Origin: an uncultured Rhodospirillaceae bacterium | GTDB lineage: Bacteria; Pseudomonadota; Alphaproteobacteria; UBA9219 | Assembly: GCA_964559415.1 (NCBI GenBank) | Contig: CAZLIG010000002.1 | Coordinates: 1 to 35,853 of the forward strand | Reading direction: 5' to 3' | DNA: 35,853 nt | Shown here: positions 9,816-35,853 of the stretch, in pieces | Position numbering within the stretch: position 1 is the first letter of the stretch | How the letters are laid out: each line of letters begins with the position of its first letter | The notes under the pieces: generated by a model | What the model was told of the DNA's origin: nothing | Seen by the model: the letters and a program-made list of their open reading frames with translations, nothing else | Databases searched by the model: none | Translations under genes and position numbers: made by a program

Positions 9816-10274
9816 ATGCCCCTCACAAGCAACCGATCCGCGTCCCATTTCTGGATCATTCTCCCCGTCGTGCTGATCATTCTGGGGGCCGTGACGATGG
9901 CGGCCACGTCCGTCAAAGAGAATATGCGCTTCTCCGAAGCCACCTCGCAAATCTTGACGATGGATAGAACCGTGCAGGTTCAAATCACCAGAACCAATCC
10001 TTGGGGCCACACGGTCTCGGGCACGCCGGGCCAAACTGGGGTGTTTCGGATCGAAAGCGTATTTCCCGCGCACGTCTGCCGCCGCATCGCCCTCTATGTG
10101 ATGGAGACCAATCCCAATGAGACCGGGCTTATAAGCATCGAGGCCCTGCCCGACAGTGCGCCGGCATGGAACAGGGTCTATCCCCCGCCCTCGCCTGAAA
10201 TCGAAGAACTCGTTCATAGCGCGTGTGGCGATATGCCGCTCGCGCGCTTGGGCGTTACTTTCCGCGTCCGGTGA
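9816..10274 (+). CDS. Small N-terminally membrane-anchored hypothetical protein with two Cys
   Basis: One TM segment (HFWIILPVVLIILGAVTMAATS), then about 115 aa with Cys in AHVCRR and HSACGD. The competing minus-strand ORF 9741..10217 is Arg/Gly-rich shadow. The 3' end overlaps the dsbD 3' end by 61 nt. Confidence 0.4.
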   Translation: MPLTSNRSASHFWIILPVVLIILGAVTMAATSVKENMRFSEATSQILTMDRTVQVQITRTNPWGHTVSGTPGQTGVFRIESVFPAHVCRRIALYVMETNPNETGLISIEALPDSAPAWNRVYPPPSPEIEELVHSACGDMPLARLGVTFRVR

Positions 10275-13099: not shown

Positions 13100-13314
13100 A
13101 GACTACCGCCCACAAGTCTAAAAAAGTTTTCACTCACTTCATCGCCAAAACATCAGCCATATGTTTTTTGCGCAAGCGATTAAATCTCATCGTTTCGGCA
13201 AGATCGCGATAGGCTATCAACAAACAAGTGAGTGAGCCTCCGCCAAATCTGGGCTTTTTAACCCTGTTTTTTGTGCTAGAGTATTAACCCTACTTTCCAC
13301 CGCCTAGCCGAACC

Positions 13315-14259: not shown

Positions 14260-14404
14260 CATCCGCAAAACACCGCCACGTGTTCTCGCGGCGCAATAAT
14301 AGCCCGCCGCTAAATAAGTTTTTCAAGCACAATTCTTTGTACAAATCCCCGCGCGAATCCTATCGTTTTTGGTACGGGTCACCCTTAACAAAAGGAGGCT
14401 TTCC

Positions 14405-14965
14405 ATGATTAGCGTCGGTCAGACTTTTCCGCCCTTCGAGCTAAAAGCCACCGTTTCCCTCGACATAGAAGAAGCCTTCAACGACATCTCTCGCGACACC
14501 TACGAAGGCGAATGGCTTGTCGTCTTCTCATGGCCCAAGGATTTCACGTTTGTCTGCCCCACCGAAATCGCCGAGTTCGGCAAAATGAGCGGCGAATTCG
14601 AAAAGCGCGGCACGAAAATCATTGGCTTCAGCACCGACAGCGAATTCGTTCACCTCGCATGGCGTCAGCACAATCCGTTGCTCAAAAACCTTCCATTCCC
14701 GATGATGTCCGACATCAAGCGCGAGCTGAGCACCGCCCTAGGCATCCTCGATCCGCAGGAAGGCGTAGCGCAGCGAGCCACGTTCATCGTCGACCCAACC
14801 AACGTCGTCCGCTTCGTCATGGTGACGGACCTCAACGTAGGTCGAAACGTCAAGGAAGTCCTGCGTGTCCTCGACGCCCTCCAAACGGACGAACTCACCC
14901 CCTGCGAATGGCAGCCCGGAGAGGCCACGATAGACCTAAAAAAAGCCGTGCAGCCCGAAGGCTAG
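14405..14965 (+). CDS. ahpC: Typical 2-Cys peroxiredoxin (AhpC/Prx1 type)
   Basis: WLVVFSWPKDFTFVCPTEI, with a resolving Cys in LTPCEW. An AAGGAGG RBS precedes the ATG at 14405. Confidence 0.88.
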   Translation: MISVGQTFPPFELKATVSLDIEEAFNDISRDTYEGEWLVVFSWPKDFTFVCPTEIAEFGKMSGEFEKRGTKIIGFSTDSEFVHLAWRQHNPLLKNLPFPMMSDIKRELSTALGILDPQEGVAQRATFIVDPTNVVRFVMVTDLNVGRNVKEVLRVLDALQTDELTPCEWQPGEATIDLKKAVQPEG

Positions 14966-14983
14966 GCAACAAATCGTCCTCGA

Positions 14984-15008
14984 CCTTCTCCCCCACCGGG
15001 GGAGAAGG
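14984..15008 (+). terminator. Perfect GC-rich hairpin after the peroxiredoxin gene (probable terminator or REP-like element)
   Basis: CCTTCTCCCCC-acc-GGGGGAGAAGG about 19 nt after the stop, followed by TTAGGACTTTT. Confidence 0.5.
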
Positions 15009-15072
15009 TTAGGACTTTTCCCAGTAAGCGATAAGCGCCCAACGACAGAATGATCCGCTCAAATGGAATAAT

Positions 15073-15115
15073 CGTCATCCCCGCGACGGCGGGGATCCCA
15101 TTTGTTTCTTAACAA
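15073..15115 (+). repeat. Palindromic intergenic repeat, copy C
   Basis: CGTCATCCCCGCGACGGCGGGGATCCCATTTGTTTCTTAACAA. Confidence 0.85.
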
Positions 15116-15268
15116 AGAAAGCCGTTAGTTCCGCTGAGCCACGATTTGGCCCTAACCGGATTTGCTTTAATGCACATCGACTATTTACCGCTCCCCAATG
15201 CATTGTTTGCACCCATCGTCAAAAAAGCTTATAGCTAGCCCCTTTCTGATCAATATAGGCTCTGGAAT

Positions 15269-16948
15269 ATGAAGGTAATGCATAATCCCGTGCATCGTCC
15301 CCCCGACGATGCGTTATGGTTTCTGCCCCTCGGCGGCGCGGGCGAAATCGGCATGAATTTTGGCCTTTACGGCACGTGCGGAAAATGGCTGATCGTCGAT
15401 TGCGGCATCACGTTCGGGGACGAAACCACCCCCGGCATCGAACTCATCACGCCCGATATCTCCTTCATCGCCGAACGCCAAAAAGACCTGCTCGGCATCG
15501 TCATCACGCACGGCCACGAAGACCACATCGGCGCAATAGGATATCTGTGGCCCCAATTGCAGTGCCCCATCTTCGCAACGAAATTCACTGCCGGATTGAT
15601 CCGCAACAAGCTTGCCTATGCCGAGCTGGAATACACCGCAAAAATCCACGAAATCCCCCCCGGGGGTCTTTTCGAGATCGGCCCTTTCAAAGGGGAATTT
15701 GTCCCCATCACGCACTCGATCCCCGAATCCCAAATGCTCGCCCTGCACACGAAGCACGGCTCGATCCTGCACACGGGCGACTGGAAACTCGATCCCGACC
15801 CGATCATCGGCTCTCTAAGCAACGCCGAACGCCTGAAGCAAATCGGCGACGAAGGCCTGCTCGCCCTCATCGGAGACTCCACAAACGCGCTTGTGCCGGG
15901 CCATTCCGGCTCTGAACGCGAAGTCCAAAACGAATTCAACCGCCTGTTTCCGACAATCAAGAAACGCATCATCGTCACCTGTTTCGCAAGCAACGTCTCG
16001 CGCCTCAAATCCATCGCAGAAGCCGCGAAACGCAGCGGACGATATGTCACGCTGGTGGGCCGGTCGCTCTGGCGCACGGCGGAAGTCGCGAACGAATGCG
16101 GCTATCTGCCAGAATTCGACGAGTTTCTGAGCGAGAACGAAGCAATGCTGTCGCCGCGCGACAAGATCGTGATCGTATCCACCGGTTGTCAGGGCGAAGC
16201 GCGTGCCGCCCTCTGCCGCATCGCGGTCGACGACCACCCCGAAATCGAGATCGAAGCCGGAGACACGGTGATTTTCTCCTCCCGGGACATCCCCGGAAAC
16301 GAAAAAGATATCGCGCGCGTCCAAAACAACCTGATCGCCAAAGGCCTGAACGTCATCACGCCCAAGGAGCGCCCGGTCCACGTCTCTGGCCACTCAGCAC
16401 AGGACGAATTGGCTCTGCTCTACGCATGGACGAAACCGAAACTCTCCATTCCCGTTCATGGCGAAACGCGCCACCAAACCGAGCACGCGCGCCTCGCAAA
16501 GGAAAGCGGCGTCCCGCAAGTCCTGATTCCGACAAACGGCCAGATCGTGCGCCTCGGCCCCGGAGTCCACGAAGTCGTGGCCGAAGTTCCCGCAGGCCGC
16601 TGGGGCCTTGACGGAAAAGTCCTGCGCCGCCTCGATGCGGGCATCTCAAAAGACCGCAAAAAGATGAGCATGAACGGCGCCGCTGTTGTCACGCTCGTCA
16701 TGGACGCCAAAGGAAAGATGAAGCAAGACCCTCGAGTAACGCTCATCGGCCTCATCGCCGACGAAACCGACACCACGCTTCAGGAGAACCTTGCGGCATT
16801 GATTTTAGACACCGTCGAAGAAATGCCGAAATCCACCCGCATCGACGACGCCGCCGTCAGCCACGCCGTCAAACTGGCCGTCCGCCGCCGCGTCAACGAA
16901 ATCCACGGCAAAAAACCGGTCACGGATGTCCATGTGGTAAGGATTTAA
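15269..16948 (+). CDS. rnj: Ribonuclease J
   Basis: Metallo-beta-lactamase HxHxDH motif (ITHGHEDHIGA), a beta-CASP region (GDWKLD, GDSTNA) and the VHVSGH motif. The length of 559 aa is typical. Confidence 0.9.
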   Translation: MKVMHNPVHRPPDDALWFLPLGGAGEIGMNFGLYGTCGKWLIVDCGITFGDETTPGIELITPDISFIAERQKDLLGIVITHGHEDHIGAIGYLWPQLQCPIFATKFTAGLIRNKLAYAELEYTAKIHEIPPGGLFEIGPFKGEFVPITHSIPESQMLALHTKHGSILHTGDWKLDPDPIIGSLSNAERLKQIGDEGLLALIGDSTNALVPGHSGSEREVQNEFNRLFPTIKKRIIVTCFASNVSRLKSIAEAAKRSGRYVTLVGRSLWRTAEVANECGYLPEFDEFLSENEAMLSPRDKIVIVSTGCQGEARAALCRIAVDDHPEIEIEAGDTVIFSSRDIPGNEKDIARVQNNLIAKGLNVITPKERPVHVSGHSAQDELALLYAWTKPKLSIPVHGETRHQTEHARLAKESGVPQVLIPTNGQIVRLGPGVHEVVAEVPAGRWGLDGKVLRRLDAGISKDRKKMSMNGAAVVTLVMDAKGKMKQDPRVTLIGLIADETDTTLQENLAALILDTVEEMPKSTRIDDAAVSHAVKLAVRRRVNEIHGKKPVTDVHVVRI

Positions 16949-16962
16949 GACTCGCGTAAACC

Positions 16963-17044
16963 TTAGATGCCATTAGCAAAGGAGAAGATTGCGGCGAAAA
17001 GCATGATTTGCAGCCCAATAAACCCCTTTGCTAACGGCATCTAA
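16963..17044. repeat. 20-bp inverted repeat (1 mismatch) enclosing a 42-nt loop
   Basis: TTAGATGCCATTAGCAAAGG at 16963-16982 pairs with CCTTTGCTAACGGCATCTAA at 17025-17044. It lies directly after the rnj stop. Confidence 0.6.
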
Positions 17045-17051
17045 ACAGAAA

Positions 17052-17087
17052 GGCCGACGCCCGGGAAGGGCTTCCCCGGCATCGGCC
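17052..17087. terminator. GC-rich hairpin between convergent rnj and sciP (possible bidirectional terminator)
   Basis: GGCCGACGCCCGGGAAG-gg-CTTCCCCGGCATCGGCC, a 17-bp stem with 2 mismatches. Confidence 0.45.
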
Positions 17088-17119
17088 CTGCTGCTAACCC
17101 TATCCTTTTCCAACGATGC

Positions 17120-17446
17120 TTAGTGTTCTCCCACTGCCTCCTGCTGATGGCGATCGGCAACGGGGCGATATTCCTGCATACGCGTCGCCCTGAGGCCCCG
17201 AACGCCGTGAGAGTCGAGCAAGTTCATCCACGAACGAAGCTCTTCCTCGGAAAGGTTGTAGCGTCCGCAAGCATCTTCGAACGAAATCAGTCCGCCACGG
17301 ATAGCCGCGACCACTTGGGCCTTGCGGCGAACGACCCAACGCTGGGTGTCGGGAGGCGGAAGATGGCTGAGATCCTTCTCGCGCGAAATTCTGACGATCT
17401 TGACTTGCTCGCCGTCGGTAGAAAAGGAGGGTTGTTTCTGGCTCAT
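17120..17446 (-). CDS. sciP: DUF1153 helix-turn-helix protein, SciP-like CtrA inhibitor
   Basis: LPPPDTQRWVVRRKAQVVAAIRGGLISFEDACGRYNLSEEELRSWMNLLDSHGVRGLRATRMQEYR matches the SciP/DUF1153 pattern I remember. The size (108 aa) fits. Confidence 0.75.
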   Translation of the reverse strand: MSQKQPSFSTDGEQVKIVRISREKDLSHLPPPDTQRWVVRRKAQVVAAIRGGLISFEDACGRYNLSEEELRSWMNLLDSHGVRGLRATRMQEYRPVADRHQQEAVGEH

Positions 17447-17510
17447 AATAAAGCTCCATCCATAAAAAAATAGAATTCCTCAATACGGGGTTGAGCTTAT
17501 ACCCGATCAT

Positions 17511-17526
17511 TTAAAATATGGCTAAC
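17511..17526 (+). promoter_or_regulatory. Near-consensus CtrA box upstream of sciP
   Basis: TTAA-aatatgg-CTAAC against the consensus TTAA-N7-TTAAC (1 mismatch), 65-80 nt upstream of the sciP start in an A/T-rich spacer of about 270 nt. A weaker second site, TTAA-N7-CAAC, lies at about 17535-17549. Confidence 0.4.
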
Positions 17527-17719
17527 CAGTAAGGTTAATTTATGGCAACAACCGTAAAAAAGGGTGAAGAAATAGAAGGTGTTGCCCTTGATTTACCATG
17601 AATTTTTGGCACGCCAAGACACTCCCCTCGCCCCCGAATAAATATGCATATTGTCCTGAAGCCAATGTTTGATGAGTCAACTGGCGCAGATCGACGCACC
17701 CCATTCAGATAAACCAACC

Positions 17720-17760
17720 CGTCTTCCCCGCGAAGGCGGGGATCCCATTTGTTTTCTTAA
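17720..17760 (+). repeat. Palindromic intergenic repeat, copy D
   Basis: CGTCTTCCCCGCGAAGGCGGGGATCCCATTTGTTTTCTTAA. Confidence 0.85.
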
Positions 17761-17804
17761 TACAGCAGCCAATGCTCCTACTGCCCCACCCGGATTTTAG
17801 AAAT

Positions 17805-19079
17805 CTAAGGACAGGGATGATGCCTATGCCGTTCCGCACGCGCCTTGCCCAAACCGTCCCGCCTGGCCTCCAGCACCTTCGCGATAAAGATGTTCCTGCC
17901 GACGCCATCGTTGCGATAGATCGTGTTCACAGGCTTCGCCAAAAACTCTTCGGGAGCCATTCCCTGTTCTTCCGCAAGGCTTTTTACGCGCGCATGAGAT
18001 TGAGCAAGCGCATCCAAATCCAATTGTTTCACCATGCCTCTGGCCGTAAAAAAGTTTCCTTCGCCGATAGCGGTAATGGTCTCCGGCCTTACTCCCGCCA
18101 AAGCCGCTGTCTGTTGCACCAAGGCTTCAATGTCGATAACGCATTTTTTCGCATCGGAAGGATGCGATTTGAAAATGGGCCTGCCCGGATTTTCACTCGC
18201 GGCAAGAGCGACAAGATCTCGGTACTCTTGATCCGTTTCAAAATTTTCGCGCTTCAGTTCGGCGGCGTCGAAAAACCTGAGAGGCTTGCCAAAATAAGGC
18301 GACTGAGCATCAAGACTCGCCACCACATATTTCTTGGCCAAATCCATCCCCACTTCATAAGAAGTGCTGCTGTATCTGCCTTCATCAGCATCATAGCCGC
18401 CAATGGAGTCCGGCCCCAAACCCGGCCCGATATCGATCTGAACCGTCTTTACATCGATTTCATAAGTATCAACCATCGCCTCAATGGCCTTCTCCATCAC
18501 GCCGTATTGCAACAGCCCTTGATGAGACCCGACGACTAGGCACACCACAGGTTTCCCGTCCGATTTTGTGGCCTTGATCGCAATAGGATGCGCATCCGCA
18601 CCCACAATGGCGATAGGAGTGTCGGGATCATCCGTCATAATAACGTCCCCGGCCCTTTTCCTGATCTTTACTTCCTCTGCATCCGAAGTTTCAGGCGCGA
18701 CAAGCTCATCGAATTTATTCTCGTCCAGCACCCTTTTATTCACCATATGCGGCCCATCGCCTTTGCCGTAGCGCGACTCGAGCACGGTGAGCTGTTTCAG
18801 ATGCGTGCCAATGTAATCGGCCGCCTTGCAGATATTCTCCGCGACGGCCCGCATATATGTAAGCTGTTCAGATGATCCTTCAGGAAAAGCTCTTTTCCCC
18901 ACCGTAAAGACATTAAGACCGGCATAAATACCAACCAGTCTCTCGCCCATGCGGCGATCTTCGCTTACGCCGCCGTCGCGCTCAAAAAACACGACATCGA
19001 CGCCTGCGTAATCACGCCCTTCCTTAACTTTGATCCCCGGATGCGCTGACGCTTTCCGGACCCTATCGACAAACCGCAC
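17805..19079 (-). CDS. Hypothetical protein, possibly an expanded and divergent YfiH/PgeF (DUF152) homologue
   Basis: 424-aa ORF. Motifs in DUF152 order: ERDGGVS, VGADAHPIAI (cf. TADCLPV), CLVVGSHQGL (cf. HAGWRGL), IGPGLGP (cf. GPxIGP), NFFTARG (cf. FFSYRR). This is recognition by eye only. Confidence 0.45.
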   Translation of the reverse strand: MRFVDRVRKASAHPGIKVKEGRDYAGVDVVFFERDGGVSEDRRMGERLVGIYAGLNVFTVGKRAFPEGSSEQLTYMRAVAENICKAADYIGTHLKQLTVLESRYGKGDGPHMVNKRVLDENKFDELVAPETSDAEEVKIRKRAGDVIMTDDPDTPIAIVGADAHPIAIKATKSDGKPVVCLVVGSHQGLLQYGVMEKAIEAMVDTYEIDVKTVQIDIGPGLGPDSIGGYDADEGRYSSTSYEVGMDLAKKYVVASLDAQSPYFGKPLRFFDAAELKRENFETDQEYRDLVALAASENPGRPIFKSHPSDAKKCVIDIEALVQQTAALAGVRPETITAIGEGNFFTARGMVKQLDLDALAQSHARVKSLAEEQGMAPEEFLAKPVNTIYRNDGVGRNIFIAKVLEARRDGLGKARAERHRHHPCP

Positions 19080-19139
19080 AAAAGTTCCTTCAAATAAAAT
19101 AAATTTGAATAAGCATTTATAAATGCAGCCCTATTACTT

Positions 19140-19925
19140 TCAAAGCCTGTCGCATAAACGCTTCGAATCCGCCGACATTTTCAAAACCTCGGTGATTTTT
19201 TTAGCCGCCCTGCGCCGCGCCTCCCAAAGAACAAGGCTGACCCACAAAGGCGTGTCCGGCATACGCGAGAAAGGCTGCCCCGCATCGAAATCATACGGAT
19301 GCGCATAAGTCCACAAAACCTCATCCGGCAGCGCCTTAGAAAGAAAATGCCGAACTGCAACCATCGGCATCTCATAAAGATAAATCCCGCCCAAATACGG
19401 AATCCGCATTTTCCCGACCGCCGCCACAGGCTGCGGAAACTCGACCATTCCATTGGCCCACGTGAACGGCGTGCGCTTCACCCCCGGAAATCCGTAAAGC
19501 GAAACAGGCGTCGGCATGATGCTCGATGAATACTTAAATCCAAGCTCCGCCAAAACATCGAGTGCCCATATGCTTCCCGGCGTCAATGAAAAACGCGGTG
19601 CTCGAAATCCAATAACACGCGTTCCCGAAAGTTGCTCAAGCCGATCCTTATCGTCCTTGCTCTCGATAAAAAACCGCGCCCGTTCTTCCTCAGTCAGCGA
19701 CACATGGTTGTGCGAGTGATACCCAATCTCGTGTCCCCGCAACGCGATGTCCTTGATAAGCTGCGGGCAAGCCTGAGCCGCCCGCCCGACAGTAAAAAAC
19801 GTCGCCTTCCGCCCGCCAAGAGACTCGCAAAGCTCAAGAATGCGGTACGTCATAGGCACATATCGTCCACCTGCGGCATAGGCGCCGGTAGGGTCTTCAA
19901 GGTCTACCGTAAACGATATCTCCAT
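19140..19925 (-). CDS. Polysaccharide deacetylase (NodB homology, DUF3473/PEP-CTERM-locus-like subfamily)
   Basis: N-terminal FTVDLED motif, HEIGYHSHNH metal-binding motif, and GFRAPRFSL. The ATG shares one nucleotide with the mutS stop (TGATG). Confidence 0.8.
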   Translation of the reverse strand: MEISFTVDLEDPTGAYAAGGRYVPMTYRILELCESLGGRKATFFTVGRAAQACPQLIKDIALRGHEIGYHSHNHVSLTEEERARFFIESKDDKDRLEQLSGTRVIGFRAPRFSLTPGSIWALDVLAELGFKYSSSIMPTPVSLYGFPGVKRTPFTWANGMVEFPQPVAAVGKMRIPYLGGIYLYEMPMVAVRHFLSKALPDEVLWTYAHPYDFDAGQPFSRMPDTPLWVSLVLWEARRRAAKKITEVLKMSADSKRLCDRL

Positions 19926-22588
19926 CAGCCGCGCACCATCCCTTTAATCTGGTAAAGCATATCAAGCGCCTGTCTCGGATTCAGCGCATCCGGATCAAGC
20001 GCCGTCAAAATCGCCTCCAGCTCGTTGCTAAGCTTTTTGGCCGGAGCCTCTACCTTGGCCGTGGCATCGAACGCCGGCAGGTTTTCCGCCAACTCCGCCT
20101 GCCCGCTCTTTTGCTTCTGGCTTTCAAGCTGCGCCAACACCTGCGAAGCCCGCATAATCGCCGAGGCCGGAAGCCCCGCCATCTGCGCCACGTGAATGCC
20201 ATAAGAGCGATCAGCCACGCCGTCGATCACCTCATGAAGAAAAACAATCTTGTTTTCCCACTCCCTGATCCGCATGGTCGCGCAATGCAACGCGGCCAGC
20301 TTCCCATCGAGCGCCGTCAATTCATGATAATGCGTCGCGAACAGCGCCCGGCACTTGTTGATTTCATGCAAATGCTCAAGCACGGCCCAGGCAATCGAAA
20401 GCCCGTCATAAGTCGCCGTCCCGCGCCCGATTTCGTCGAGAATGACAAGCGCCCTTTCGCCCGCCTGATGAAGAATCGCCGCCGTCTCCACCATCTCGAC
20501 CATAAACGTCGAGCGTCCTGCCGCCAGATCGTCGGCAGCCCCCACGCGACTGAACAGCCTGTCAACAACCCCGATATGCGCCGCCGCCGCAGGCACGAAC
20601 GCCCCCATCTGAGCCATAAGCGCGATCAGCGCATTCTGCCTCAAAAATGTTGATTTACCCGCCATGTTCGGCCCGGTCAGCAACCACAAATGCCGCCCTG
20701 CCGTCAAATCGCAATCGTTGGAAATAAACTTGGCCCCGCCTCCATTCCTGCCAAGCGCCTGCTCGACAACCGGATGCCTCCCGCCTTTGATCTGAAACTC
20801 CATCGACGTATCGACCACGGGCCTTGAATAGCTCTGCTCAACCGCCAGCTCCGCGAGCGCCGCCGCCACATCGAGCGCGGCAAGCGCCTGAGCCGTCTGC
20901 CGCATCTCGGGCAACCGGACGACAACCTCCTGCACAAGCTCGGCAAAAAGCTGCATCTCGACCGCAAGCGCGCGATCCGCCGCCTCGGTAATTTTCCGTT
21001 CCAACTCCGAAAGCTCAACCGTGGTAAACCGCGCCGAAGACGCCAGCGTCTGCCGATGGATAAACGTATCCTTATCCGCAAAAAGCTTATCCGCCTGCGA
21101 CGCCGTCACCTCAATGTGATACCCGATAACCTGATTGTGCTTGATCTTAAGGGTCGCCACATGACTCAGCGCCGCATATTTCTGCTGAAGCCCCGCAATA
21201 AGCCGCTTTCCGTCGTCGCGCAGCATCACAAGCTCATCGAGCTGAAGCGCAAACCCTTTGGCGATAAAATTACCGTCGCGCGCAAGCATCGGCAACTCTT
21301 CCGCAAGCGCCCGCTCAAGCTTGTCCACGATTAAGTCATGGCCCCCAAGCTGTTCGACCTCAACCCTCAAACACTCCGGTGCCCCAACAAGAACGGACCT
21401 TATCTCCCCCGCCCTGCGCACCGCCTCCCGCACGCTCGCCAAATCGCGCGGCCCTCCGCGCCCGAGCGCCAGCCGCGCCAGTGCGCGCTCCAAATCAGGC
21501 GTCCTCCGCAAAAACCCGCGCACTTTTGCCCGCGCATCCGCCGACATCACAAAATATTCAACAGCGTCAAGCCGCGCCTGAATAACCCGAACGTCAGTCA
21601 GCGGTGCCGTCAACCGCGACGCAAGCAACCGCGCTCCGGCCCCCGTCTCAGTGCGGTCGATCGCCGAAAGCAAACTCCCCTGCCTCTCCCCCGAAAGCGT
21701 CCGCGTCAGCTCCAAATTCCGCCGCGTCGAGGCGTCAATGGCCACCTGCATCGTCCCCGCCTTCTGAGGCGGCGAGAAATGCTTGAGATCGGTCTTTTGC
21801 GTAAGCTCGATGTAATCAAGCAAAGCCCCCAGCGCCGCAATCTCGGCCCGCCCGAAATCCCCAAACGCTGCCAAGTCCCCCACACCGTAAATATCCAAAA
21901 TACGCCGCCGCGCATTGTCGCTGTCGAACCGCGAATTCGGCTGAGGCGCAAGTTGCGTCCTCCAAGGGGCAAGCGCCTCGAACAGCTCCGGTGTCTCCAC
22001 CGCCCTTTGTGAAATCAATATTTCGCTCGGATCGATGCTCGCCAAAGCTCCCGCCAAATCGAGCGCCTCAAGCCCCTGAACATAAACCCGCCCCGTCACG
22101 ATATCGCACCACGCAAGCGCCAGCTCATTTCCGATGCTTGTGACGCAGGCAAGAAAGTTCGCAGCCCGCGCATCGAGCAAGCTGTCCTCGGTAAGCGTCC
22201 CCGGCGTAATGATGCGAATGACATCGCGCGTCACAATGGATTTGTTCCCGCGCTTCTTGGCCTCCGCAGGAGACTCCTGCTGCTCGCAAATCGCAACCCT
22301 GAACCCCGCGCGAATGAGCTTGGCCACATACCCCTCGTAGGAATGCGCAGGCACGCCGCACATAGGCACGTCCTGCCCCTTATGCTGCCCGCGCTTCGTC
22401 AGCGCGATATCGAGCGCCTTCGACGCCGTAAGCGCATCCTCGAAAAAAAGTTCATAGAAATCGCCAAGCCTGAAAAAAAGCAGGCAGTCCTGATGTTGCC
22501 TTTTAACAGCAAAGTATTGCGCAAGCAGCGGAGTCGCCGCCTCGGGCGTCTGAAGGTCTGAGAGAAAGGAAGCCTGAACTGGGGGCAT
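19925..22588 (-). CDS. mutS: DNA mismatch repair protein MutS
   Basis: TPLLAQYFAVKRQHQDCLLFFRLGDFYELFFEDA at the N-terminus, Walker A GPNMAGKSTFLRQ, and the DEIGRGTATYDG motif. Start moved to residue 31 of the track ORF (MPPVQ...), about 22588, because MutS normally begins just before the TP(L/M)MxQY motif. Confidence 0.92.
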   Translation of the reverse strand: MPPVQASFLSDLQTPEAATPLLAQYFAVKRQHQDCLLFFRLGDFYELFFEDALTASKALDIALTKRGQHKGQDVPMCGVPAHSYEGYVAKLIRAGFRVAICEQQESPAEAKKRGNKSIVTRDVIRIITPGTLTEDSLLDARAANFLACVTSIGNELALAWCDIVTGRVYVQGLEALDLAGALASIDPSEILISQRAVETPELFEALAPWRTQLAPQPNSRFDSDNARRRILDIYGVGDLAAFGDFGRAEIAALGALLDYIELTQKTDLKHFSPPQKAGTMQVAIDASTRRNLELTRTLSGERQGSLLSAIDRTETGAGARLLASRLTAPLTDVRVIQARLDAVEYFVMSADARAKVRGFLRRTPDLERALARLALGRGGPRDLASVREAVRRAGEIRSVLVGAPECLRVEVEQLGGHDLIVDKLERALAEELPMLARDGNFIAKGFALQLDELVMLRDDGKRLIAGLQQKYAALSHVATLKIKHNQVIGYHIEVTASQADKLFADKDTFIHRQTLASSARFTTVELSELERKITEAADRALAVEMQLFAELVQEVVVRLPEMRQTAQALAALDVAAALAELAVEQSYSRPVVDTSMEFQIKGGRHPVVEQALGRNGGGAKFISNDCDLTAGRHLWLLTGPNMAGKSTFLRQNALIALMAQMGAFVPAAAAHIGVVDRLFSRVGAADDLAAGRSTFMVEMVETAAILHQAGERALVILDEIGRGTATYDGLSIAWAVLEHLHEINKCRALFATHYHELTALDGKLAALHCATMRIREWENKIVFLHEVIDGVADRSYGIHVAQMAGLPASAIMRASQVLAQLESQKQKSGQAELAENLPAFDATAKVEAPAKKLSNELEAILTALDPDALNPRQALDMLYQIKGMVRG

Positions 22589-28373: not shown

Positions 28374-29699
28374 ATGATGCCCATGCCTCAAAAATTGTGT
28401 TCTAAGCGGTGTTCCGCCCTGCGCGGCGATATATCCCCGCCCGGCGACAAAAGCATATCCCACCGCAGTATCATGTTCGGCGGCTTGGCGGAAGGCACAA
28501 CCACCATCCACGGCCTCCTCGAAGGCGAAGATGTTCTGTGCACCGTCGCAGCCCTGCGGGCCATGGGCGCCGATATCCGCAAAGATGACAAAGGCGTCTG
28601 GCACGTGACAGGCGTCGGCGCAAAAGGCCTCAGCGCCCCCCAGACCACGCTTGATGTCGGCAACAGCGGCACCTCCGCGCGCCTCCTGATCGGCCTGTGC
28701 GCCGGAAACCCCTTCACCGCCCGCTTCACCGGAGACGCCTCCCTCTGCAAACGCCCGATGGGCCGCGTCATCGAACCTCTTTCCCTCATGGGCGCGACCT
28801 TTGAAAGCGCCAACGGCAAGCTCCCCCTCGCCGTGACAGGCGCAGCAAAACCCACCCCCATCGCCTACGCCCTGCCCGTCCCGTCGGCCCAGGTTAAATC
28901 CGCAATACTCCTCGCCGGCCTTGGCGCGGAGGGCATCACAACCGTCATCGAAAAGGTGCCCACCCGCGACCATTCCGAAAATATGCTGCGGGGCTTCGGC
29001 GCAAAAATTTCAGTCGAAAAACGCGACGGAGCCGAGGCCATTTCGATCACCGGCAAACCAAGGCTCAAAGCGCAAAACATCAACGTCCCCGCCGACCCAA
29101 GCTCCGCAGCATTTCCTCTTGTTGCAGCGTTGCTGTGCCCCGGCTCCGCCCTGACCTTGCGCAACGTCGGCCTGAACCCCCGCCGCGCCGGACTCATCGA
29201 CGTGTTGAGACAAATGGGCGCAAAAATCACAACGTTGAATCTGCGCTCCGAAGGCGGCGAACCCGTCGCCGACCTGATTGTTTCGCATTCCGACTTAAAA
29301 GGCATCGACGTCCCTCCTGACCACGCCCCCAGCATGATTGACGAGTACCCCATTTTAGCCGTCGCCGCCGCCTTCGCAGAAGGAGCCACGCGCATGAGCG
29401 GCCTGCAAGAGCTCCGCGTTAAAGAAAGCGACCGCCTCGCCCTGATGGCCCAAGGCCTGACCCGCTGCGGCGTTAAAGTTGAAATCAAAGGCGATGACCT
29501 GATCGTACACGGCACCGGCCACCCCCCCGAAGGCGGCGCAAGCATCGAGACGGCGATGGACCACCGCATCGCCATGAGCTTCCTCGTTCTTGGAACCCAA
29601 TCAACCTCGCCCGTCAGCATCGACGACGGAAGCTTCATCGCAACAAGCTTCCCCGGCTTCGTAACCATGATGAACGGCCTGGGAGCAAAGATTGCGTAA
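28374..29699 (+). CDS. aroA: 3-phosphoshikimate 1-carboxyvinyltransferase (EPSP synthase)
   Basis: PGDKSISHRSIMFGGLAEG, LDVGNSGTSARLL, and the LRVKESDRL motif. Start reset to the ATG at 28374, because the track ORF's first 112 aa are antisense to grpE. Confidence 0.92.
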   Translation: MMPMPQKLCSKRCSALRGDISPPGDKSISHRSIMFGGLAEGTTTIHGLLEGEDVLCTVAALRAMGADIRKDDKGVWHVTGVGAKGLSAPQTTLDVGNSGTSARLLIGLCAGNPFTARFTGDASLCKRPMGRVIEPLSLMGATFESANGKLPLAVTGAAKPTPIAYALPVPSAQVKSAILLAGLGAEGITTVIEKVPTRDHSENMLRGFGAKISVEKRDGAEAISITGKPRLKAQNINVPADPSSAAFPLVAALLCPGSALTLRNVGLNPRRAGLIDVLRQMGAKITTLNLRSEGGEPVADLIVSHSDLKGIDVPPDHAPSMIDEYPILAVAAAFAEGATRMSGLQELRVKESDRLALMAQGLTRCGVKVEIKGDDLIVHGTGHPPEGGASIETAMDHRIAMSFLVLGTQSTSPVSIDDGSFIATSFPGFVTMMNGLGAKIA

Positions 29700-29780: not shown

Positions 29781-30797
29781 ATGACAGAGACGCAGCCAGA
29801 AATACCCCCGCAACCCAGTCAACCGCGCCCAACGTGGGGCCGCGTCGCAAATGTCATTTATGGCTTTATTCTCGCCGGAATTGCGGTCCCAGCGGTCTGC
29901 CTAAGCCTCGTTTTCGCCCCCGGCCCACTCGAAGCGACGAAAAACATCGTCATTGCCCACGGCACAAAGACAACGGATATCGGGACCAAGCTTTTCGAGG
30001 AGAAAGCTGTCCGCGCCTCCTTCCTCTTCCGCATCGCCGCGCTGATCGCAGGCCCCCTGAAGGCAGGCGAATACGAGATCCCCGCCCAAGCAAAACCCAT
30101 CGAAATCGCCCGAATCATGCATCAGGGCGTAAGCGTCGTCCGCGCGTTTACGGCCCCGGAAGGTCTGACCTCCGCCGAGATCATCCGTCTCCTGAGCGCC
30201 GATCCCGCGCTCTCCGGCACCGTTCCGGCGGTCCCGCCCGAAGGCTCGCTGCTGCCTGAAACTTACTACTACACCCTTAACGACACCCGCGCAGGCATCG
30301 TCACGCGAATGCAAAAATCCATGCGCGAAAAGCTTGGCGAGCTTTGGCAAAACCGCGACGATGGCCTTCCTCTAAAATCCATGGACGAAGCTCTCGCCTT
30401 AGCCTCAATCGTTGAAAAGGAAACCGGGAAGGCAGCAGAGCGCCCCCGGATCGCGGGCGTCTTCTACAACCGCCTGCGCCTGAAAATGCGCCTCCAGTCC
30501 GATCCAACAGTCATTTACGCGCTGACGAACGGCAGAGCGTCCCTCGACCGAGCACTGACGCACGCCGACCTAACCTATCCGTCGCGGATCAACACGTACA
30601 CCTCCGACGGCATCCCGCCGCAGCCCATCTGCAACCCCGGCAATGCCGCGCTCCACGCCGTATTGCACCCCGAGCGTAACACCTATCTGTATTTCGTGGC
30701 CGACGGCACCGGCGGCCACGTCTTCTCAAGCGACCTCGTGACCCACAATAAAAACGTAAGCTCATGGCGAAAGGTAGAAAACGCGGCACACCCATGA
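29781..30797 (+). CDS. mltG: Endolytic murein transglycosylase MltG (YceG-like)
   Basis: N-terminal TM segment, then LASIVEKETG, AGVFYNRLRLKMRLQSDPTVIY and YNTYxxxGLPP-like 'INTYTSDGIPPQPICNPG'. Confidence 0.9.
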   Translation: MTETQPEIPPQPSQPRPTWGRVANVIYGFILAGIAVPAVCLSLVFAPGPLEATKNIVIAHGTKTTDIGTKLFEEKAVRASFLFRIAALIAGPLKAGEYEIPAQAKPIEIARIMHQGVSVVRAFTAPEGLTSAEIIRLLSADPALSGTVPAVPPEGSLLPETYYYTLNDTRAGIVTRMQKSMREKLGELWQNRDDGLPLKSMDEALALASIVEKETGKAAERPRIAGVFYNRLRLKMRLQSDPTVIYALTNGRASLDRALTHADLTYPSRINTYTSDGIPPQPICNPGNAALHAVLHPERNTYLYFVADGTGGHVFSSDLVTHNKNVSSWRKVENAAHP

Positions 30798-31540
30798 CCA
30801 TAGAATTCCCGGTAGACATCGCCTCAAATCTTGAAAACGTCCGAACCAACATCAAAAAAGCTCAAACGGACAAAGAGGTAAAATTAATCGCTGTCAGCAA
30901 ATTTCACGCAGCGGATGAAATACGGGTAGCGCTTGAGTCTGGCCAGCGCGTTTTCGGCGAAAATTACGTTCCCGAAGCCGCTGAAAAATTCACCAGCCTG
31001 AGCCAGAATTACCCCGACATCGAACTGCACCTGATCGGACACCTGCAATCAAACAAAGTAAAGCAGGCCATTAGGACTTTTCGGTATATCCAAACCCTCG
31101 ACAGCGAAAACCTCGCGCGAAAACTGAAAAAAGCGATTGATGCCGCCAAAGAGGAGGACCCGAAGTTCGAGCCGCCCTCCTTCTATATCCAGCTCAAATT
31201 CGACCCCAAAGAGCAAAAAACGGGTATCGACCCGACCGCAGAAGCAGTTGGAAAGCTTCTTAAATACAGCACCGAGGACTGCGGCTTAAAGGTCGTGGGC
31301 CTCATGTGCATCCCCCCGGAGAACCCGCCAGAAGGCATATCCGTAGGTGACTACTTTAAAAAACTTAACGAACTCGCAGACAGATTCAACCTCGAACGCC
31401 GCAGCATGGGCATGAGCGCAGACTACGAAGAAGCCATCGCCAGAGGCGCAACCGACGTTCGGGTAGGCTCAGACATTTTCGGGCCCCGCCCCCCAGACCC
31501 GAAATCGGCCACGCACAGCTTCCCTGTCAATGTTCTATAA
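30794..31540 (+). CDS. yggS: YggS family pyridoxal-phosphate homeostasis protein
   Basis: LIAVSKFH (PLP lysine), FGENYVPEA, HLIGHLQSNKV and MGMSADYEEAI. The ATG overlaps the mltG stop (ATGA). Confidence 0.88.
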   Translation: MTIEFPVDIASNLENVRTNIKKAQTDKEVKLIAVSKFHAADEIRVALESGQRVFGENYVPEAAEKFTSLSQNYPDIELHLIGHLQSNKVKQAIRTFRYIQTLDSENLARKLKKAIDAAKEEDPKFEPPSFYIQLKFDPKEQKTGIDPTAEAVGKLLKYSTEDCGLKVVGLMCIPPENPPEGISVGDYFKKLNELADRFNLERRSMGMSADYEEAIARGATDVRVGSDIFGPRPPDPKSATHSFPVNVL

Positions 31541-31551
31541 ACGCATTGTGC

Positions 31552-32646
31552 CTAGAACCTGCCGCCGCCCTTCGACAACTCTCCCACAACGCTGAAAATC
31601 GAAAGCATGGTCCAGGCGATAACGCCGCCTACAAGCGCCATGCCCGCGTTACGAATAAGCACGGCCTGCGCCTTCATGGCATCCACCTGATCGCGCATCC
31701 AGTCTTCCGTCACCATTTCGATGACCGCGCCGACGTCGGCGCGTTCGGACAGAATTTCAAGATCAATGGCAATTTCCGGAGCCGGGAAATTCATCCCGCT
31801 GAGCCTCAAAGCCTCACCGAGATTATGCCCTCGCAAGACCCTCTGCCGCGCGGCGCCAATGCGTTCGCGAATCCACGGATTGCCCTGCTCTTCAAGAATT
31901 TCGAGCGACCTCTTGAGAGGCACCTGCGACCCCAAGAGCGCCGAGAGTCCCATAAGAAAACCGGACCCCTGCATGACGCGATACCACGACCAGGGTGGAT
32001 ACATATCGAACTTGGTTCGCGTTGGCCCTCTCCAATAAGGCAAGGTCGACGCGATAACAGCGACGGTGACAAGAAGGATTGCGATAACCCACAAACCATA
32101 CGACGAAACGAAATCCGAAAACGGAACGACCGCGCCCATGGAATCGACAACGTTCTTCGGAGCGTTCGCCCGCATATTGGCGATGAGGTTGACGCTGAAC
32201 GTCCAGATAACGAACCCGACCAAAAGGGTGATGAATGCAGGATACCCGATGGCATAGCTGACGGCCTCGCGCATCTGGCGGCCGCGCTCGCCCATCAACT
32301 GAATAAAGGCCAAGGTTCTCGCCAAAGCGCCCGACTCTTCGCCCGCGCGAATCAGGTAAAGCTCGCTCGTGGGAACCCATCCCTCCATGGCTTTTGAAAG
32401 CGAAATACCGGCGCGATCCTTGAGAAACCATTCGCGCAGCGCGACGGCCGCAGGCCGCTTGGGATATTTGCCGACTTCGGTCACGTTTTGGTAAAGGCGG
32501 TCGAGCGAGCGGGAGAGGGCCTCGTTACCGCGCAACATGCCTTCCAGCTTGCGATAGATGCGGTAACGCGTTTTGCGATTCCACTTAAACTGCGCGCGCG
32601 TCAGTTTTGTTTCGAGAGCCGCCAGTTTTTCTTCGAGTTCACTCAT
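31552..32646 (-). CDS. GspF/PilC-family inner-membrane platform protein (cf. R64 PilR, BfpE, TcpE)
   Basis: 364 aa with two T2SSF-like repeats: a cytoplasmic helical domain followed by TM segments (SLSKAMEGW...LIRAGEESG and SLEILEEQGNP...LGEALRLSG). The start overlaps the ATPase stop (ATGA). Confidence 0.8.
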   Translation of the reverse strand: MSELEEKLAALETKLTRAQFKWNRKTRYRIYRKLEGMLRGNEALSRSLDRLYQNVTEVGKYPKRPAAVALREWFLKDRAGISLSKAMEGWVPTSELYLIRAGEESGALARTLAFIQLMGERGRQMREAVSYAIGYPAFITLLVGFVIWTFSVNLIANMRANAPKNVVDSMGAVVPFSDFVSSYGLWVIAILLVTVAVIASTLPYWRGPTRTKFDMYPPWSWYRVMQGSGFLMGLSALLGSQVPLKRSLEILEEQGNPWIRERIGAARQRVLRGHNLGEALRLSGMNFPAPEIAIDLEILSERADVGAVIEMVTEDWMRDQVDAMKAQAVLIRNAGMALVGGVIAWTMLSIFSVVGELSKGGGRF

Positions 32647-34697
32647 TTTATCGACCCAAGTTTTTGTTCGACTTCAAGAAGCTCGCGGGGACGCGAGAAA
32701 ATGCCGAGTTCAAACTCGGCATCGTCAGGAGAAACCTCGCCGCCTCGAACTTTTTCGAGTCCGCGCTGCAGCATATTGATCCCGTTGAGTCCGGCAGGCG
32801 AGAGCCAGTAACGCTCGGCCTCGTCTTCGCGGTTGTCGGAAAGCAAAGACATAAGCTTCGCGTCGGTTTCGATAATCTCCGCGCATACCGTGCGTCCCGC
32901 GCGGCCTTTATAGCATTGCGGGCAGCCTTCGGGATTCGCAAGAAAGACTTTGCTCAGATCGGGTTCCTGCAAGCAGTCTATAATGGGCCGCCCGACATTA
33001 GCCTTGTTGCGGCTTGCCTCCATGACCGCCAGCCCCGCGCGGACGCGCCGCTTCAACTCACGCATCGAAGGCCCGAGGTCTTGGCAGGCTTGTTCGAGCG
33101 GAATGCGGCAATGCGGGCACAAGCTCCGCAAAAGCCTTTGGCACGCCATGCCGCGCACAAGATTGTGGTCATAAACGATGTAAGGCTCGACGCCGATATC
33201 CCGAAGCCTTTTCGGAGTCGCTAACGCAGAATAAACGTGGCCCGTTGTGTAGACTTGGCGGCCCGTCAGCGCGAGCCGGAAAGCGAATTGTGCCGTCTGA
33301 AGATCGCGAACCTCGCCAAGCATCACGATGTCGGGATCGAGACGCAAAGCGCAGCGCATGATTTCGACGAACGTTTTTTCGCGCTGCTCGTCCTTGACGG
33401 ATGCCGAAACGCCGATCTGCCGCGAACCCACAACGCCGCCTTCCGGAGGATCTTCAATCAAAAGGCAGTTAAGCCTCATCTCGGTCTCGACCATGCGCCG
33501 GTTAAGCACGACGCGCAACGTGGTGGTTTTGCCTTGGTTGACCGGCCCCGAGAAAATGCGCAATCCGCCCGGCGACGCGCGCAGGCTTTGCACGACCTTT
33601 AATTGCTCTTGTGAAAAGCCGAGGGAGTCGACATCGGCCATCACGAAATTCTCGCCCCACAAGTGGGCGGAATCGTAAGAAAGGCGCATATCGAGGTAAG
33701 CGCCGCCATTGGAAAGAGGAACCCACTGGCATCGAACGCTGATGACGCCTTTGGGCAAAGTTATAACTTCCTTGCCGCGCGCGTCGGAAGTCAACATGGC
33801 CGCCTGCGGCTCCTGAAAGTTCGATGTCGCGCCCGACTGGCCTATCGAGTGCGAATAGACTGCCGCAAGGAACTGATCGCCTTCAACCTGCGTCCACACG
33901 TCCTGTCGGCGCAGCGACCCGTCGATGCGGAATTGCACGACGCAGCGTCCGTTGACCGATTCGACGTGTATGTCGTTTGCGCCCATCTGAACCGCTTGTT
34001 CCAGCGTGGCGACGATACGGCGGCGAGCCGTATTCTCGTCGTAGTGCATCGCGTTCGCGCTACGGTCGGCATAAAGATAGGCCTGAAGAATGATGTTCGG
34101 AGTGACGTACTTCGGATCGTCAACCTTGTACCCCTGCCGCTTGGCGGCCTGAGCCACTGATGTAACCAAAGGCGAGCGCCTGTGCGACGCGCTGACCAGC
34201 CACAACCCGCTGTCAAATAAAGCGCAAAGATTGCGCGCTTCTTCAGGAATTTTTAGCGCTCCGTTGGCGGCCGTCAACACCGTACCGGTGAAAAGAAGCG
34301 GCAAGGTGCGCTCGTCTTCGACCTTGATGTCTTCGGCAGGAGCTGGAGGAATCGGAATCGCAGGACCGTGCGGAGGCGACGCACTCTCTTTGGGAGCCGC
34401 CGCATTTTCAGCTTGCTGAGCATGGCCGGCTGCGGGAGCCGACGCGCCGCGCCCCTCTTCGGGATGCACGGGCTTCTTGGGAAGAACCGGCTTTTTTTTC
34501 TGTTCAGGCGCAAGAAAGGCGGGCCTGCTTAAAGCCTTTAGCTTCTTCTCCACAAGATTGGCCAAGTTGAGCACGCAAAATCCCTTTAGAGCACTTGGGA
34601 CGACGTTCACCGAAAGCGTTGCCCTTTGAACGAGTTCGGGGCGAGAACCGTGATTTTCGAGAACCGGCGCGCAACGTGCGTCTGAGCACGTGAGCAC
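32643..34697 (-). CDS. GspE/PilB-family secretion ATPase with an N-terminal extension (cf. R64 PilQ)
   Basis: Walker A SGPVNQGKTTT, Asp box LLIEDPPEGG, Walker B DPDIVMLGEVRD, His box TGRQVYTTGHV, and the tetracysteine CPHC...CPQCYKGRAGR. Confidence 0.85.
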   Translation of the reverse strand: MLTCSDARCAPVLENHGSRPELVQRATLSVNVVPSALKGFCVLNLANLVEKKLKALSRPAFLAPEQKKKPVLPKKPVHPEEGRGASAPAAGHAQQAENAAAPKESASPPHGPAIPIPPAPAEDIKVEDERTLPLLFTGTVLTAANGALKIPEEARNLCALFDSGLWLVSASHRRSPLVTSVAQAAKRQGYKVDDPKYVTPNIILQAYLYADRSANAMHYDENTARRRIVATLEQAVQMGANDIHVESVNGRCVVQFRIDGSLRRQDVWTQVEGDQFLAAVYSHSIGQSGATSNFQEPQAAMLTSDARGKEVITLPKGVISVRCQWVPLSNGGAYLDMRLSYDSAHLWGENFVMADVDSLGFSQEQLKVVQSLRASPGGLRIFSGPVNQGKTTTLRVVLNRRMVETEMRLNCLLIEDPPEGGVVGSRQIGVSASVKDEQREKTFVEIMRCALRLDPDIVMLGEVRDLQTAQFAFRLALTGRQVYTTGHVYSALATPKRLRDIGVEPYIVYDHNLVRGMACQRLLRSLCPHCRIPLEQACQDLGPSMRELKRRVRAGLAVMEASRNKANVGRPIIDCLQEPDLSKVFLANPEGCPQCYKGRAGRTVCAEIIETDAKLMSLLSDNREDEAERYWLSPAGLNGINMLQRGLEKVRGGEVSPDDAEFELGIFSRPRELLEVEQKLGSIK

Positions 34698-34789
34698 CGG
34701 AAGCGGAAAACGCGGTTTACAGCCCCAGCTCGTTCAAAGGCCAACGCTCCCGGCAAGTATCCTCCCCCGGCGGTCGTCACACCTCCCAC

Positions 34790-35572
34790 TTAGCGCACGA
34801 TGGAATGAACCATCTCAACGTTCTTGATGTGCAATGTGTAGGAAGATCCCTTTCCGCCAATCTCGACAGAAGAAGACGTTATCGACCGAACAAATTCGCC
34901 ATCGGAAATCTTGTCCCCAACCCTTACGGACTTGGTTTCGTCGCTCACCTTGAGAACGGCGGAATACTTGCCACCGGCACCGGTGATCCGCTGCAAAGTC
35001 GGACGGCGCGTCTGCGGTGGGTTGTTGATAATCCGCGAGTCCCTGATCTGTCGGGCCCCGCCACCAGCGAAGCCTTGTCCTGCTGGAAAAGCTAAAGCGC
35101 TGGCAGGAATAGCCTCGGCCAGATTGGCAGGCAGTCCCGGAATAGCGGCCACGCTACCCGTTTTATTGCGGTCACTGCGAAGCTTTTCGAGTTCGTTAAG
35201 TCTCCTCTCGACATCGATCATAGCCTCGATGCGCGAAATGGTCTGACGCACGCGATTGAGTTCCGAAAGCGTTGTCTCATCGGGCACGTTGTCTAGTTTC
35301 TTGACTTCGGCCTTGGCGCTTTCGATGAGCTTGTCCTCAACCTTGGTCATGCTCTTTTCAATGGTTTCCTTCACGGGCGTTGCGGAAGCGGCGGGAGCTC
35401 CGGCGGTCGCCGCAGGTTGGGCTGTCGCCGCTGGGGCAACAGGCGCCACGACGGCAGCAGCCTGCTGCGCGTTTACAGGTGCGGCCAAGCAAGAACCGAA
35501 CACGCACAGGAAAGCCGCCACGAAGCCCGTTAAAGGCTGTCCCGGCAAATGGAAGCTACTTGCGATTCTCAT
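34790..35572 (-). CDS. Secreted PilP-like pilus or secretion assembly protein (tentative)
   Basis: Signal peptide (...CLAAPVNA|QQ), an Ala/Pro-rich linker, a coiled coil (LSELNRVRQTISRIEAMIDVERRLNELEKL), then a C-terminal beta-rich domain (YSAVLKVSDETKSVRVGDKISDGEFVRSITSSSVEI) resembling PilP/GspC HR domains. It sits immediately upstream of the ATPase. Confidence 0.45.
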   Translation of the reverse strand: MRIASSFHLPGQPLTGFVAAFLCVFGSCLAAPVNAQQAAAVVAPVAPAATAQPAATAGAPAASATPVKETIEKSMTKVEDKLIESAKAEVKKLDNVPDETTLSELNRVRQTISRIEAMIDVERRLNELEKLRSDRNKTGSVAAIPGLPANLAEAIPASALAFPAGQGFAGGGARQIRDSRIINNPPQTRRPTLQRITGAGGKYSAVLKVSDETKSVRVGDKISDGEFVRSITSSSVEIGGKGSSYTLHIKNVEMVHSIVR

Positions 35573-35853
35573 AAATCACCCCTTCAACGCGCCAAGCGCC
35601 AACAGCGCCAGCTCCTGGCTGGTAAAACATATTGCTCACAATGGCTCCGGGCAGATCACCGATATATCCCGGCAGGCCTCCAGGTAGTTCTGCCACATTA
35701 AGCGTAAAAGAACGCTTAACCCAAGGAGCAGGGGGAGGATTCCACTCGCCTTTATATTCTGGGGGTGGAGGCGGAGGAGGATCGTCAGGCGCGCGGGATA
35801 TGTTTCCCCAGTATCCGCCCATTGTGAGGGCAGCCAGCTTGTCGGGAGCCACT
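35556..35853 (-). CDS. C-terminal fragment of a proline-rich protein (5' end outside the window). By position it is equivalent to R64 PilO.
   Basis: The frame is open to the window edge and contains DDPPPPPPPEYKGEWNPPPAPW. Its stop overlaps the start of the PilP-like gene by 17 nt. The family assignment rests on gene order only. Confidence 0.35.
   Translation of the reverse strand, partial: VAPDKLAALTMGGYWGNISRAPDDPPPPPPPEYKGEWNPPPAPWVKRSFTLNVAELPGGLPGYIGDLPGAIVSNMFYQPGAGAVGAWRVEGVIYENRK

Follow-up and report, generated by a model that had tools for sequence, protein, structure and literature searches.

The window analysed here is the whole 35.8-kb stretch of contig CAZLIG010000002.1, from an uncultured Rhodospirillaceae bacterium. 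Its last part (31552-35853, minus strand) holds four pil genes encoding, in order of transcription, the end of a PilO2 protein, a PilP-family protein, a PilQ-type ATPase and a PilR-type platform protein (Table 1). Judged by sequence comparison with relatives, these are the last four genes (pilO2', pilP, pilQ, pilR) of a chromosomal operon of six genes for type IVb pilus assembly.

The pil genes at the edge of the window

A first-pass annotation had described four minus-strand open reading frames (ORFs) as the O-P-Q-R part of an R64-type operon. When we read the gene boundaries from the sequence, the pilO2/pilP overlap of 17 nt (35556-35572), the ATGA overlap of 4 nt between ATPase and platform (32643-32646) and the 11 nt separating the platform stop from the yggS stop (31541-31551) were all as described. 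The gap between pilP and pilQ, given as 93 nt, needed revision: it is 92 nt with the longest ATPase ORF (32643-34697, minus strand, from an upstream GTG at 34697) and 215 nt with the conserved GTG at 34574. The latter start is preceded by AAGGGA and is shared with L001 (JAQVZU010000004.1), one of the related loci, which are numbered with the prefix L throughout; the gene call in an 89%-identical relative is 628 amino acids (aa). L001 also has the 17-nt pilO2/pilP overlap when the conserved MRIAN start is taken. Our promoter and terminator scan of the pil region gave no excess over shuffled expectation. The GC content of the pil genes is 0.56-0.59 versus 0.52-0.62 elsewhere, and GC at third codon positions (GC3) is 0.62-0.69 for the three complete genes versus 0.60-0.73 for their neighbors, which bears out the earlier impression of a composition within the host range.

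The platform matched PF00482 (T2SSF) at 9e-24, in two stretches, and was 27% identical to R64 PilR (9e-37), 30% identical to the platform of the Bosea plasmid pANAM02 and 88-89% identical to the L001 and P0029 proteins. The ATPase matched PF00437 (T2SSE) at 4.6e-53 and was 30% identical to R64 PilQ (1e-46). Its translation carries Walker A GPVNQGKT, LDPDIVMLGEVRD and two CxxC pairs, and its ATPase motifs are intact. Against the type II secretion equivalogs, the ATPase scored 174.7 for GspE versus a cut-off of 630 and the platform 71.7 for GspF versus a cut-off of 424, and the TadA model matched the window ATPase only at 1e-4. A plus-strand ORF of 283 aa at 31546-32397, with strong tblastn matches in many loci, was rejected as the antisense shadow of the conserved platform gene.

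Comparisons by sequence, by hidden Markov model (HMM) and, for the second, by structure related the two upstream proteins to PilO2 and PilP. The PilP-like protein of the window matched TIGR03021 at 2e-6 (28.8 bits, under the cut-off of 34.65), while 14 of the 16 members of its family matched this model, the best at 3.3e-11. A profile of the family aligned with R64 PilP with an hhalign probability of 79.7% (E 1.5e-5). The window protein is built of a signal peptide, an Ala/Pro-rich linker, a long coiled coil and a C-terminal HR-type beta domain. In a single-sequence AlphaFold2 (AF2) model only the C-terminal beta domain was usable, with a predicted local distance difference test (pLDDT) score of 71-83. 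Its best PDB matches were the GspC HR domain bound to GspD (3oss_C, template modeling score 0.77, root mean square deviation 2.1 Å) and PilP of P. aeruginosa and Neisseria. The Foldseek E-values were weak (≥0.01) and the top specific matches concordant. On the strength of this model, the C-terminal domain is assigned to the secretin-binding HR type. The proline-rich fragment at 35556-35853 gave no Pfam match by itself over its 98 aa; it shares 82% identity with residues 339-422 of L001 PilO2, a protein that matches PF06864 over its full length at 3.6e-20, and PF06864 was also found in L118, L028 and L030. By this homology, the fragment is the C-terminus of a PilO2 protein.

The complete operon in relatives and its genomic setting

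A scan of species-representative genomes yielded 20 loci in uncultured Alphaproteobacteria, some deposited as Rhodospirillaceae or as "Bdellovibrionales" (NCBI's placement of Micavibrio), and the same operon was present on well over 100 environmental alphaproteobacterial contigs. The platform family comprises at least 356 members at E<1e-20. The best 120 are 66-100% identical, and every organism name given by the source is that of an uncultured metagenome-assembled genome.

The PilL and PilN genes that the first-pass annotation had thought worth seeking turned up in these relatives. Both L001 (platform 88% identical) and L118 (the 585-kb JGI contig Ga0455843_0000003; 89%) carry the full operon tcpQ/pilL-pilN-pilO2-pilP-pilQ-pilR, with mscS/ctrA at one end and yggS-mltG-aroA at the opposite end. 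The L001 PilN has the lipobox LGAC and matched TIGR02520 at 5e-81 (272.8 bits, just under the cut-off of 287.65), and the L001 TcpQ, a TcpQ + STN protein, matched PF10671 at 5.4e-14. L118 likewise encodes a PilN secretin and TcpQ. The TcpQ + STN protein, the PilL equivalent, is 377-486 aa long.

On the aroA side, L118 runs on through grpE to mutS, collinear with the window. The yggS-pilR junction is as in the window in L001-L005 (L002 being JAQUUS010000007.1), L007, L008, L011, L012 and L117/L118, and the identities of the cluster proteins track those of the flanking housekeeping genes. The cluster sits among core genes, as had been noted from the window itself, and shows no sign of a plasmid or an integrative and conjugative element (ICE). 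Compared with L001, the ratio of nonsynonymous to synonymous divergence (dN/dS) is 0.05 for the platform, 0.06 for the ATPase and 0.13 for PilP; these ratios are rough since dS is near saturation. In the same comparison, the dN of pilQ and pilR is below that of aroA. Strong purifying selection acts on the assembly genes.

Dot/Icm-like type IVB secretion genes, namely traI/dotC (PF16932), a gene for a traJ/dotB-like ATPase and icmT, adjoin the pil operon in several relatives (Table 1), an arrangement also known from IncI plasmids. In the closest relatives of the window, mscS and ctrA hold that position. Other secretion- and pilus-related genes were seen near some clusters. The pilin-less relative L010 has a separate Tad/Cpa locus (13253-20302, minus strand) convergent to pilR, which encodes TadB/C, a CpaF-type ATPase and a BON-domain CpaC secretin. 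Beyond ctrA, ∼8-9 kb upstream of pilin-less clusters, PilT-like ATPases are encoded in L005 (479-2409, two in tandem) and L008 (254-799, one); these share 35-39% identity with the second Bosea cluster ATPase and are possible retraction motors by sequence.

Table 1. Positions of the pil genes, their neighbors in the window and the Dot/Icm-like genes of related loci
Sequence	Feature	Position	Strand	Length or remark
Window	Platform (pilR type, GspF/PilC family)	31552-32646	-	364 aa
Window	ATPase (pilQ type, GspE/PilB family)	32643-34574	-	643 aa from conserved GTG at 34574
Window	Spacer between pilP and pilQ	34575-34789	-	215 nt; 92 nt if GTG 34697 used
Window	PilP-family protein	34790-35572	-	260 aa
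Window	pilO2 3' end, cut by window edge	35556-35853	-	last ∼98 codons; ORF open to edge
Window	yggS (pyridoxal phosphate-binding protein), convergent boundary gene	30764-31540	+	PF01168
Window	mltG	29781-30797		PF02618; next after yggS away from pil genes
Window	aroA	28377-29699		PF00275; beyond mltG
Window	Divergent pilin-like gene	9816-10274	+	152 aa; between rsmA and dsbD
L018	Dot/Icm-like genes	1507-4044		
L022	Dot/Icm-like genes	1-1235		
L006	Dot/Icm-like genes	2178-4710		
L011	Dot/Icm-like genes	1410-4455		
L012	Dot/Icm-like genes	194-1696		
L013	Dot/Icm-like genes	1833-4755		
L015	Dot/Icm-like genes	8792-9724		inverted

Two further ORFs of the window are without a Pfam match: one of 607 aa (5348-7171, minus strand), which adjoins a XerC/D-type recombinase gene (4400-5341), and one of 466 aa (7891-9291, plus strand), whose 3' end overlaps rsmA on the opposite strand so that its true end is uncertain.

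Pilin genes beside and away from the operon

In most lineages, pilR is followed directly by 3-7 PilS-type pilin genes. L017-L020, L022 and L023 have three such genes, whose products match PF08805 (PilS) and bear two C-terminal cysteines as well as the class III signal G|FTLIE. L028, whose platform is 69% identical to that of the window, has five pilins after pilR, and L030 has three on a 1.83-Mb contig; at least about 19 further metagenome clusters have 1-7 pilins in this position. The short metagenome contig L023 (144-3675) also shows the platform gene and pilins directly after glyQ with no ATPase gene between, reflecting either an artefact of assembly or an alternative gene arrangement.

A divergent pilin-like gene that lacks the Gly-1/Glu+5 motif often comes after the pilin block, as does a PilV-like gene. 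We found PilV-like proteins only in L040, L048 and L057, where they are ∼510 aa long and end the pilin block (L040 10752-12284; L057 10738-12258; L048 ∼10764-12251). The two that were scanned, those of L040 and L057, carry both a prepilin N-methylation motif and a Peptidase_S74 domain. Peptidase_S74 is the intramolecular chaperone of phage tail-spike endosialidases, and from its domains the L040/L057 protein may be a tip adhesin of unusual build.

After pilR, neither the window nor any of L001-L016 has a PilS-type pilin (PF08805, class III signal). An HMM of related pilins found none in the 31.5 kb of the window downstream of the platform either, except a divergent ORF at 9816-10274, and tblastn with R64 PilT, PilU, PilV and PilM and the E. 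coli A24 peptidase returned nothing in the window or near the clusters, except a transglycosylase in L006. The first-pass annotation was therefore right that the pilS/T/U/V block is absent downstream. In the platform tree, which is a neighbor-joining distance tree only, all 17 clusters without adjacent pilins (the window and L001-L016) form one clade nested among pilin-bearing clades. This topology points to a single removal of the pilin block from the operon, in the ancestor shared by the window and L001-L016, with the six assembly genes retained during the extensive diversification that followed.

The ORF at 9816-10274, ∼21 kb from pilR, was the sole non-trivial match to the pilin profile in the window. 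Its product has an N-terminal transmembrane helix and two Cys but no Gly-1/Glu+5 processing motif, and its GC3 of 0.73 fits a real gene of this window. By blastp it matched, at 2e-17 to 1e-13, ORFs immediately after the PilS-type pilins of L033, L075, L078, L090 and L097, with weaker matches in L040, L048, L059, L076, L091 and L103, so that the family is present after pilins in 11 loci. A profile of this family aligned with the PilS-pilin profile over its full length (hhalign 98.5%, E 1.6e-15, 182 columns). Pfam scans of the ORF and its relatives gave no family, the single-sequence AF2 model was unusable (pLDDT 50), and an identity as R64 PilM was ruled out (hhalign 0.6%). These profile comparisons identify the ORF as a member of an unannotated family of divergent PilS-like pilin paralogues. 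Given its homology to the post-pilin ORFs, one or more parts of the ancestral pilin block now stand ∼21 kb from pilR in this genome.

Pilins also occur on their own. An exhaustive HMM search put the PilS-type pilin family at 5515 matches; a word-indexed protein search with the pilin profile found 27 close relatives at E≤1e-3, the same at E≤10, and thus missed most of the family. In metagenomes, major pilins of the L028_p5 type, whose N-terminus reads KRGFTLTEIAIVLGIIGLILGAIWVAA, stand alone in housekeeping contexts. At a distance of 1.6-2.2 kb, three of these have homologues (58-68% identity) of genes flanking pilin-less clusters in L001, L009 and L014. Another solitary PilS-type pilin (P0245, in L113/L114) stands among genes for a resolvase, a DNA methyltransferase, AbiEii, VirB8/CagX/TrbI and an integrase, surroundings that are mobile-element-like.

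A probable pilus machine, its alternatives and its relation to known systems

Taken together, these results make it probable that the operon encodes a working type IVb pilus machine of the R64/PAPI-1/Tfp7 kind whose filament genes are unlinked, a known machine rather than a new secretion system. To judge from their homologues, the PilR platform and its PilQ ATPase would polymerise PilS-type pilins from the inner membrane. PilO2, with an actin-like cytoplasmic domain and a membrane anchor, and PilP would join the platform to the PilN lipoprotein secretin, with PilP contacting PilN through its HR domain and the TcpQ/STN protein helping the secretin. Because the pilin block left the operon in an ancestor, other loci would be expected to supply the filament genes in trans. 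One of these genes, the divergent pilin-like one, is present in the window at 9816-10274. The major pilin, expected to begin approximately with KRGFTLTEIAIVLGIIGL, and the prepilin peptidase would then be encoded elsewhere in this genome. The pilus would likely serve in adhesion or cell-cell contact. Both the supply of parts in trans and their scattering have precedents. R64-type clusters that lack pilU, those of PAPI-1 and of B. pseudomallei Tfp7, borrow a peptidase (PMC3984277), and the Micavibrio aeruginosavorus genome is reported to have dispersed pil genes and no type IV secretion (PMC3189940). As a cultured proxy M. aeruginosavorus was set aside, as presence of this operon there could not be shown.

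Several results weigh against this reading. A canonical pilin, a prepilin peptidase, a PilT-type transglycosylase and PilV were not found in the 35.8 kb of the window or, apart from the L006 transglycosylase mentioned above, within 10 kb of the cluster in 17 relatives. The word-indexed search gave no pilin on contigs with a pilin-less cluster. A metagenome pilin scan with a six-sequence alignment gave none on the 585-kb contig of the closest relative, which is part of a genome, among the best 80 of 114 matches. Assignment of the solitary pilins to the pilin-less clade is uncertain.

These same absences suit a different account, in which the R64-type machine is truly pilin-less in the clade, has long been kept without a canonical pilin and was recruited elsewhere: to protein secretion, to drive only the Glu5-less pilin-like protein as a periplasmic piston or short pseudopilus, or to contact or secretion as an accessory of the Dot/Icm-like system. 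Its old and stable state across a diversified clade with assembly genes still under selection, the dotC/dotB/icmT genes adjoining the operon in L006, L011-L013 and L015, and the lack of a Gly-1/Glu+5 motif in the one pilin-like gene of the window all speak for it. To our knowledge, however, all characterised type IV filament machines, including the type II secretion system (T2SS), require pilin-like subunits. The operon of close relatives keeps the full pilus-extruding set (secretin, TcpQ and PilP) with no new component, metagenomes commonly hold solitary major pilins from this family, and dispersed pil genes are normal for type IVa systems and reported in Micavibrio (PMC3189940). We therefore consider a pilin-less machine unlikely, although, if true, it would amount to a type IV filament machine that had dispensed with its filament. 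The first-pass annotation had offered the region as a candidate novel system, a view not supported in light of the ordinary tcpQ/pilL-pilN-pilO2 upstream half in relatives, of sister lineages with 3-7 PilS-type pilins after pilR, and of the indications that the pilin-less state is one ancestral event and that a divergent pilin-block member survives in the window. Of its two suggestions for the absent subunits, that they are encoded elsewhere is clearly favored, if not proven, and recruitment to an undescribed function is less favored.

Public annotations imply an incomplete T2SS (JGI "PulF", NCBI "type II secretion system F family protein"), and the GspE/GspF family matches, the source names of the homologues and the resemblance of the PilP C-terminal domain to the GspC HR domain agree with them. 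Yet the equivalog scores are far under the cut-offs and the partners are specific to type IVb systems (PilO2 by PF06864, the PilN IVB secretin by TIGR02520 at 5e-81, and TcpQ). GspC/L/M and the G-K pseudopilins are absent from every locus, and sister clusters have PilS pilins, all of which makes a T2SS very improbable. Just as doubtful is a recently acquired, split half of a conjugative pilus cluster from a plasmid or ICE. R64-type clusters do usually reside on IncI plasmids and ICEs, and type IVB secretion system (T4BSS) genes lie near the cluster in some relatives. Against such an origin, the core-gene junctions (mscS/ctrA and yggS-mltG-aroA) are constant across many species-level genomes, GC and GC3 match the neighbors, the window has no tRNA and the cluster no integrase or relaxase beside it, and cluster identities follow those of the flanking housekeeping genes. 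A decaying remnant without function would explain the lost downstream block but is scarcely credible with ORFs intact in 17 genomes, dN/dS of 0.05-0.13 and intact ATPase motifs.

Reading these genes as type IVb pilus parts corrects the public labels "PulF" (JGI) and "type II secretion F family" (NCBI). It also implies that type IVb clusters, usually described as self-contained operons of mobile elements, can be chromosomally fixed and split: across a whole clade, one operon holds the motor, platform, alignment proteins and secretin, and the subunits would lie at other loci. The frequent presence of dotC/dotB/icmT genes beside the operon hints at the pairing of a thin pilus and a T4BSS in uncultured Alphaproteobacteria of free-living or predatory habit, a pairing that by itself would be no new kind of machine. 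Of the side findings, those of most interest are the T4BSS genes beside the operon in several relatives and the unannotated family of Glu5-less pilin-like proteins.

Among known systems, the thin pilus of R64 (IncI1), pilL-M-N-O-P-Q-R-S-T-U-V, shares the order L-N-O-P-Q-R with this operon as it stands in complete relatives, and also their IVB-family PilN lipoprotein secretin, PilO2 (PF06864), a probable PilP, a GspE-type PilQ and a GspF-type PilR. PilS-type pilins (PF08805) occur in sister lineages, and some relatives have traI/traJ-like T4BSS genes nearby, as in R64. Identities to the R64 proteins are 27% for PilR, 30% for PilQ, 28% for PilN, 24% for PilO and 23% for the C-terminus of PilL. 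In contrast to R64, the locus is chromosomal and vertically inherited, it is without pilM, pilT, pilU, pilV and a shufflon, and the clade has no pilS in the cluster. PilP has 260 aa with a coiled coil versus 150 aa in R64, the ATPase has an N-terminal extension of ∼200 aa, and the PilL equivalent is a TcpQ + STN protein. The closest annotated relative found is on plasmid pANAM02 of Bosea sp. ANAM02 (NZ_AP022849.1), with 32% identity for the ATPase, 30% for the platform, 29% for PilN and 27% for PilO2. Its order is the same, TcpQ-PilN family IVB-PilO2-hypothetical(PilP)-ATPase-platform, but it is plasmid-borne, and a PilT-like second ATPase and a PilV-like pilin follow the platform.

The T2SS (GspC-M) resembles the locus in its homologous ATPase, platform and secretin and in an HR-domain protein that binds the secretin, whereas GspL/M/C and pseudopilins are lacking here and the accessory proteins are type IVb-specific. 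The Tad/Flp pilus, to judge from the Tad-like locus of L010, is clearly a different gene set. Like this operon, B. pseudomallei Tfp7 is chromosomal and reorganised with TcpQ for PilL, so the family does not strictly require carriage on a conjugative plasmid or ICE (PMC3984277). PAPI-1 and Tfp7 keep pilS2 (and pilV2/pilM2) in the cluster, whereas the pilin block here is unlinked (PMC3984277). By homology of five of the six core genes, the locus is assigned to the R64/PAPI-1/Tfp7 type IVb pilus family, and its missing in-cluster pilin, peptidase, transglycosylase and adhesin are organisational, not mechanistic, differences.

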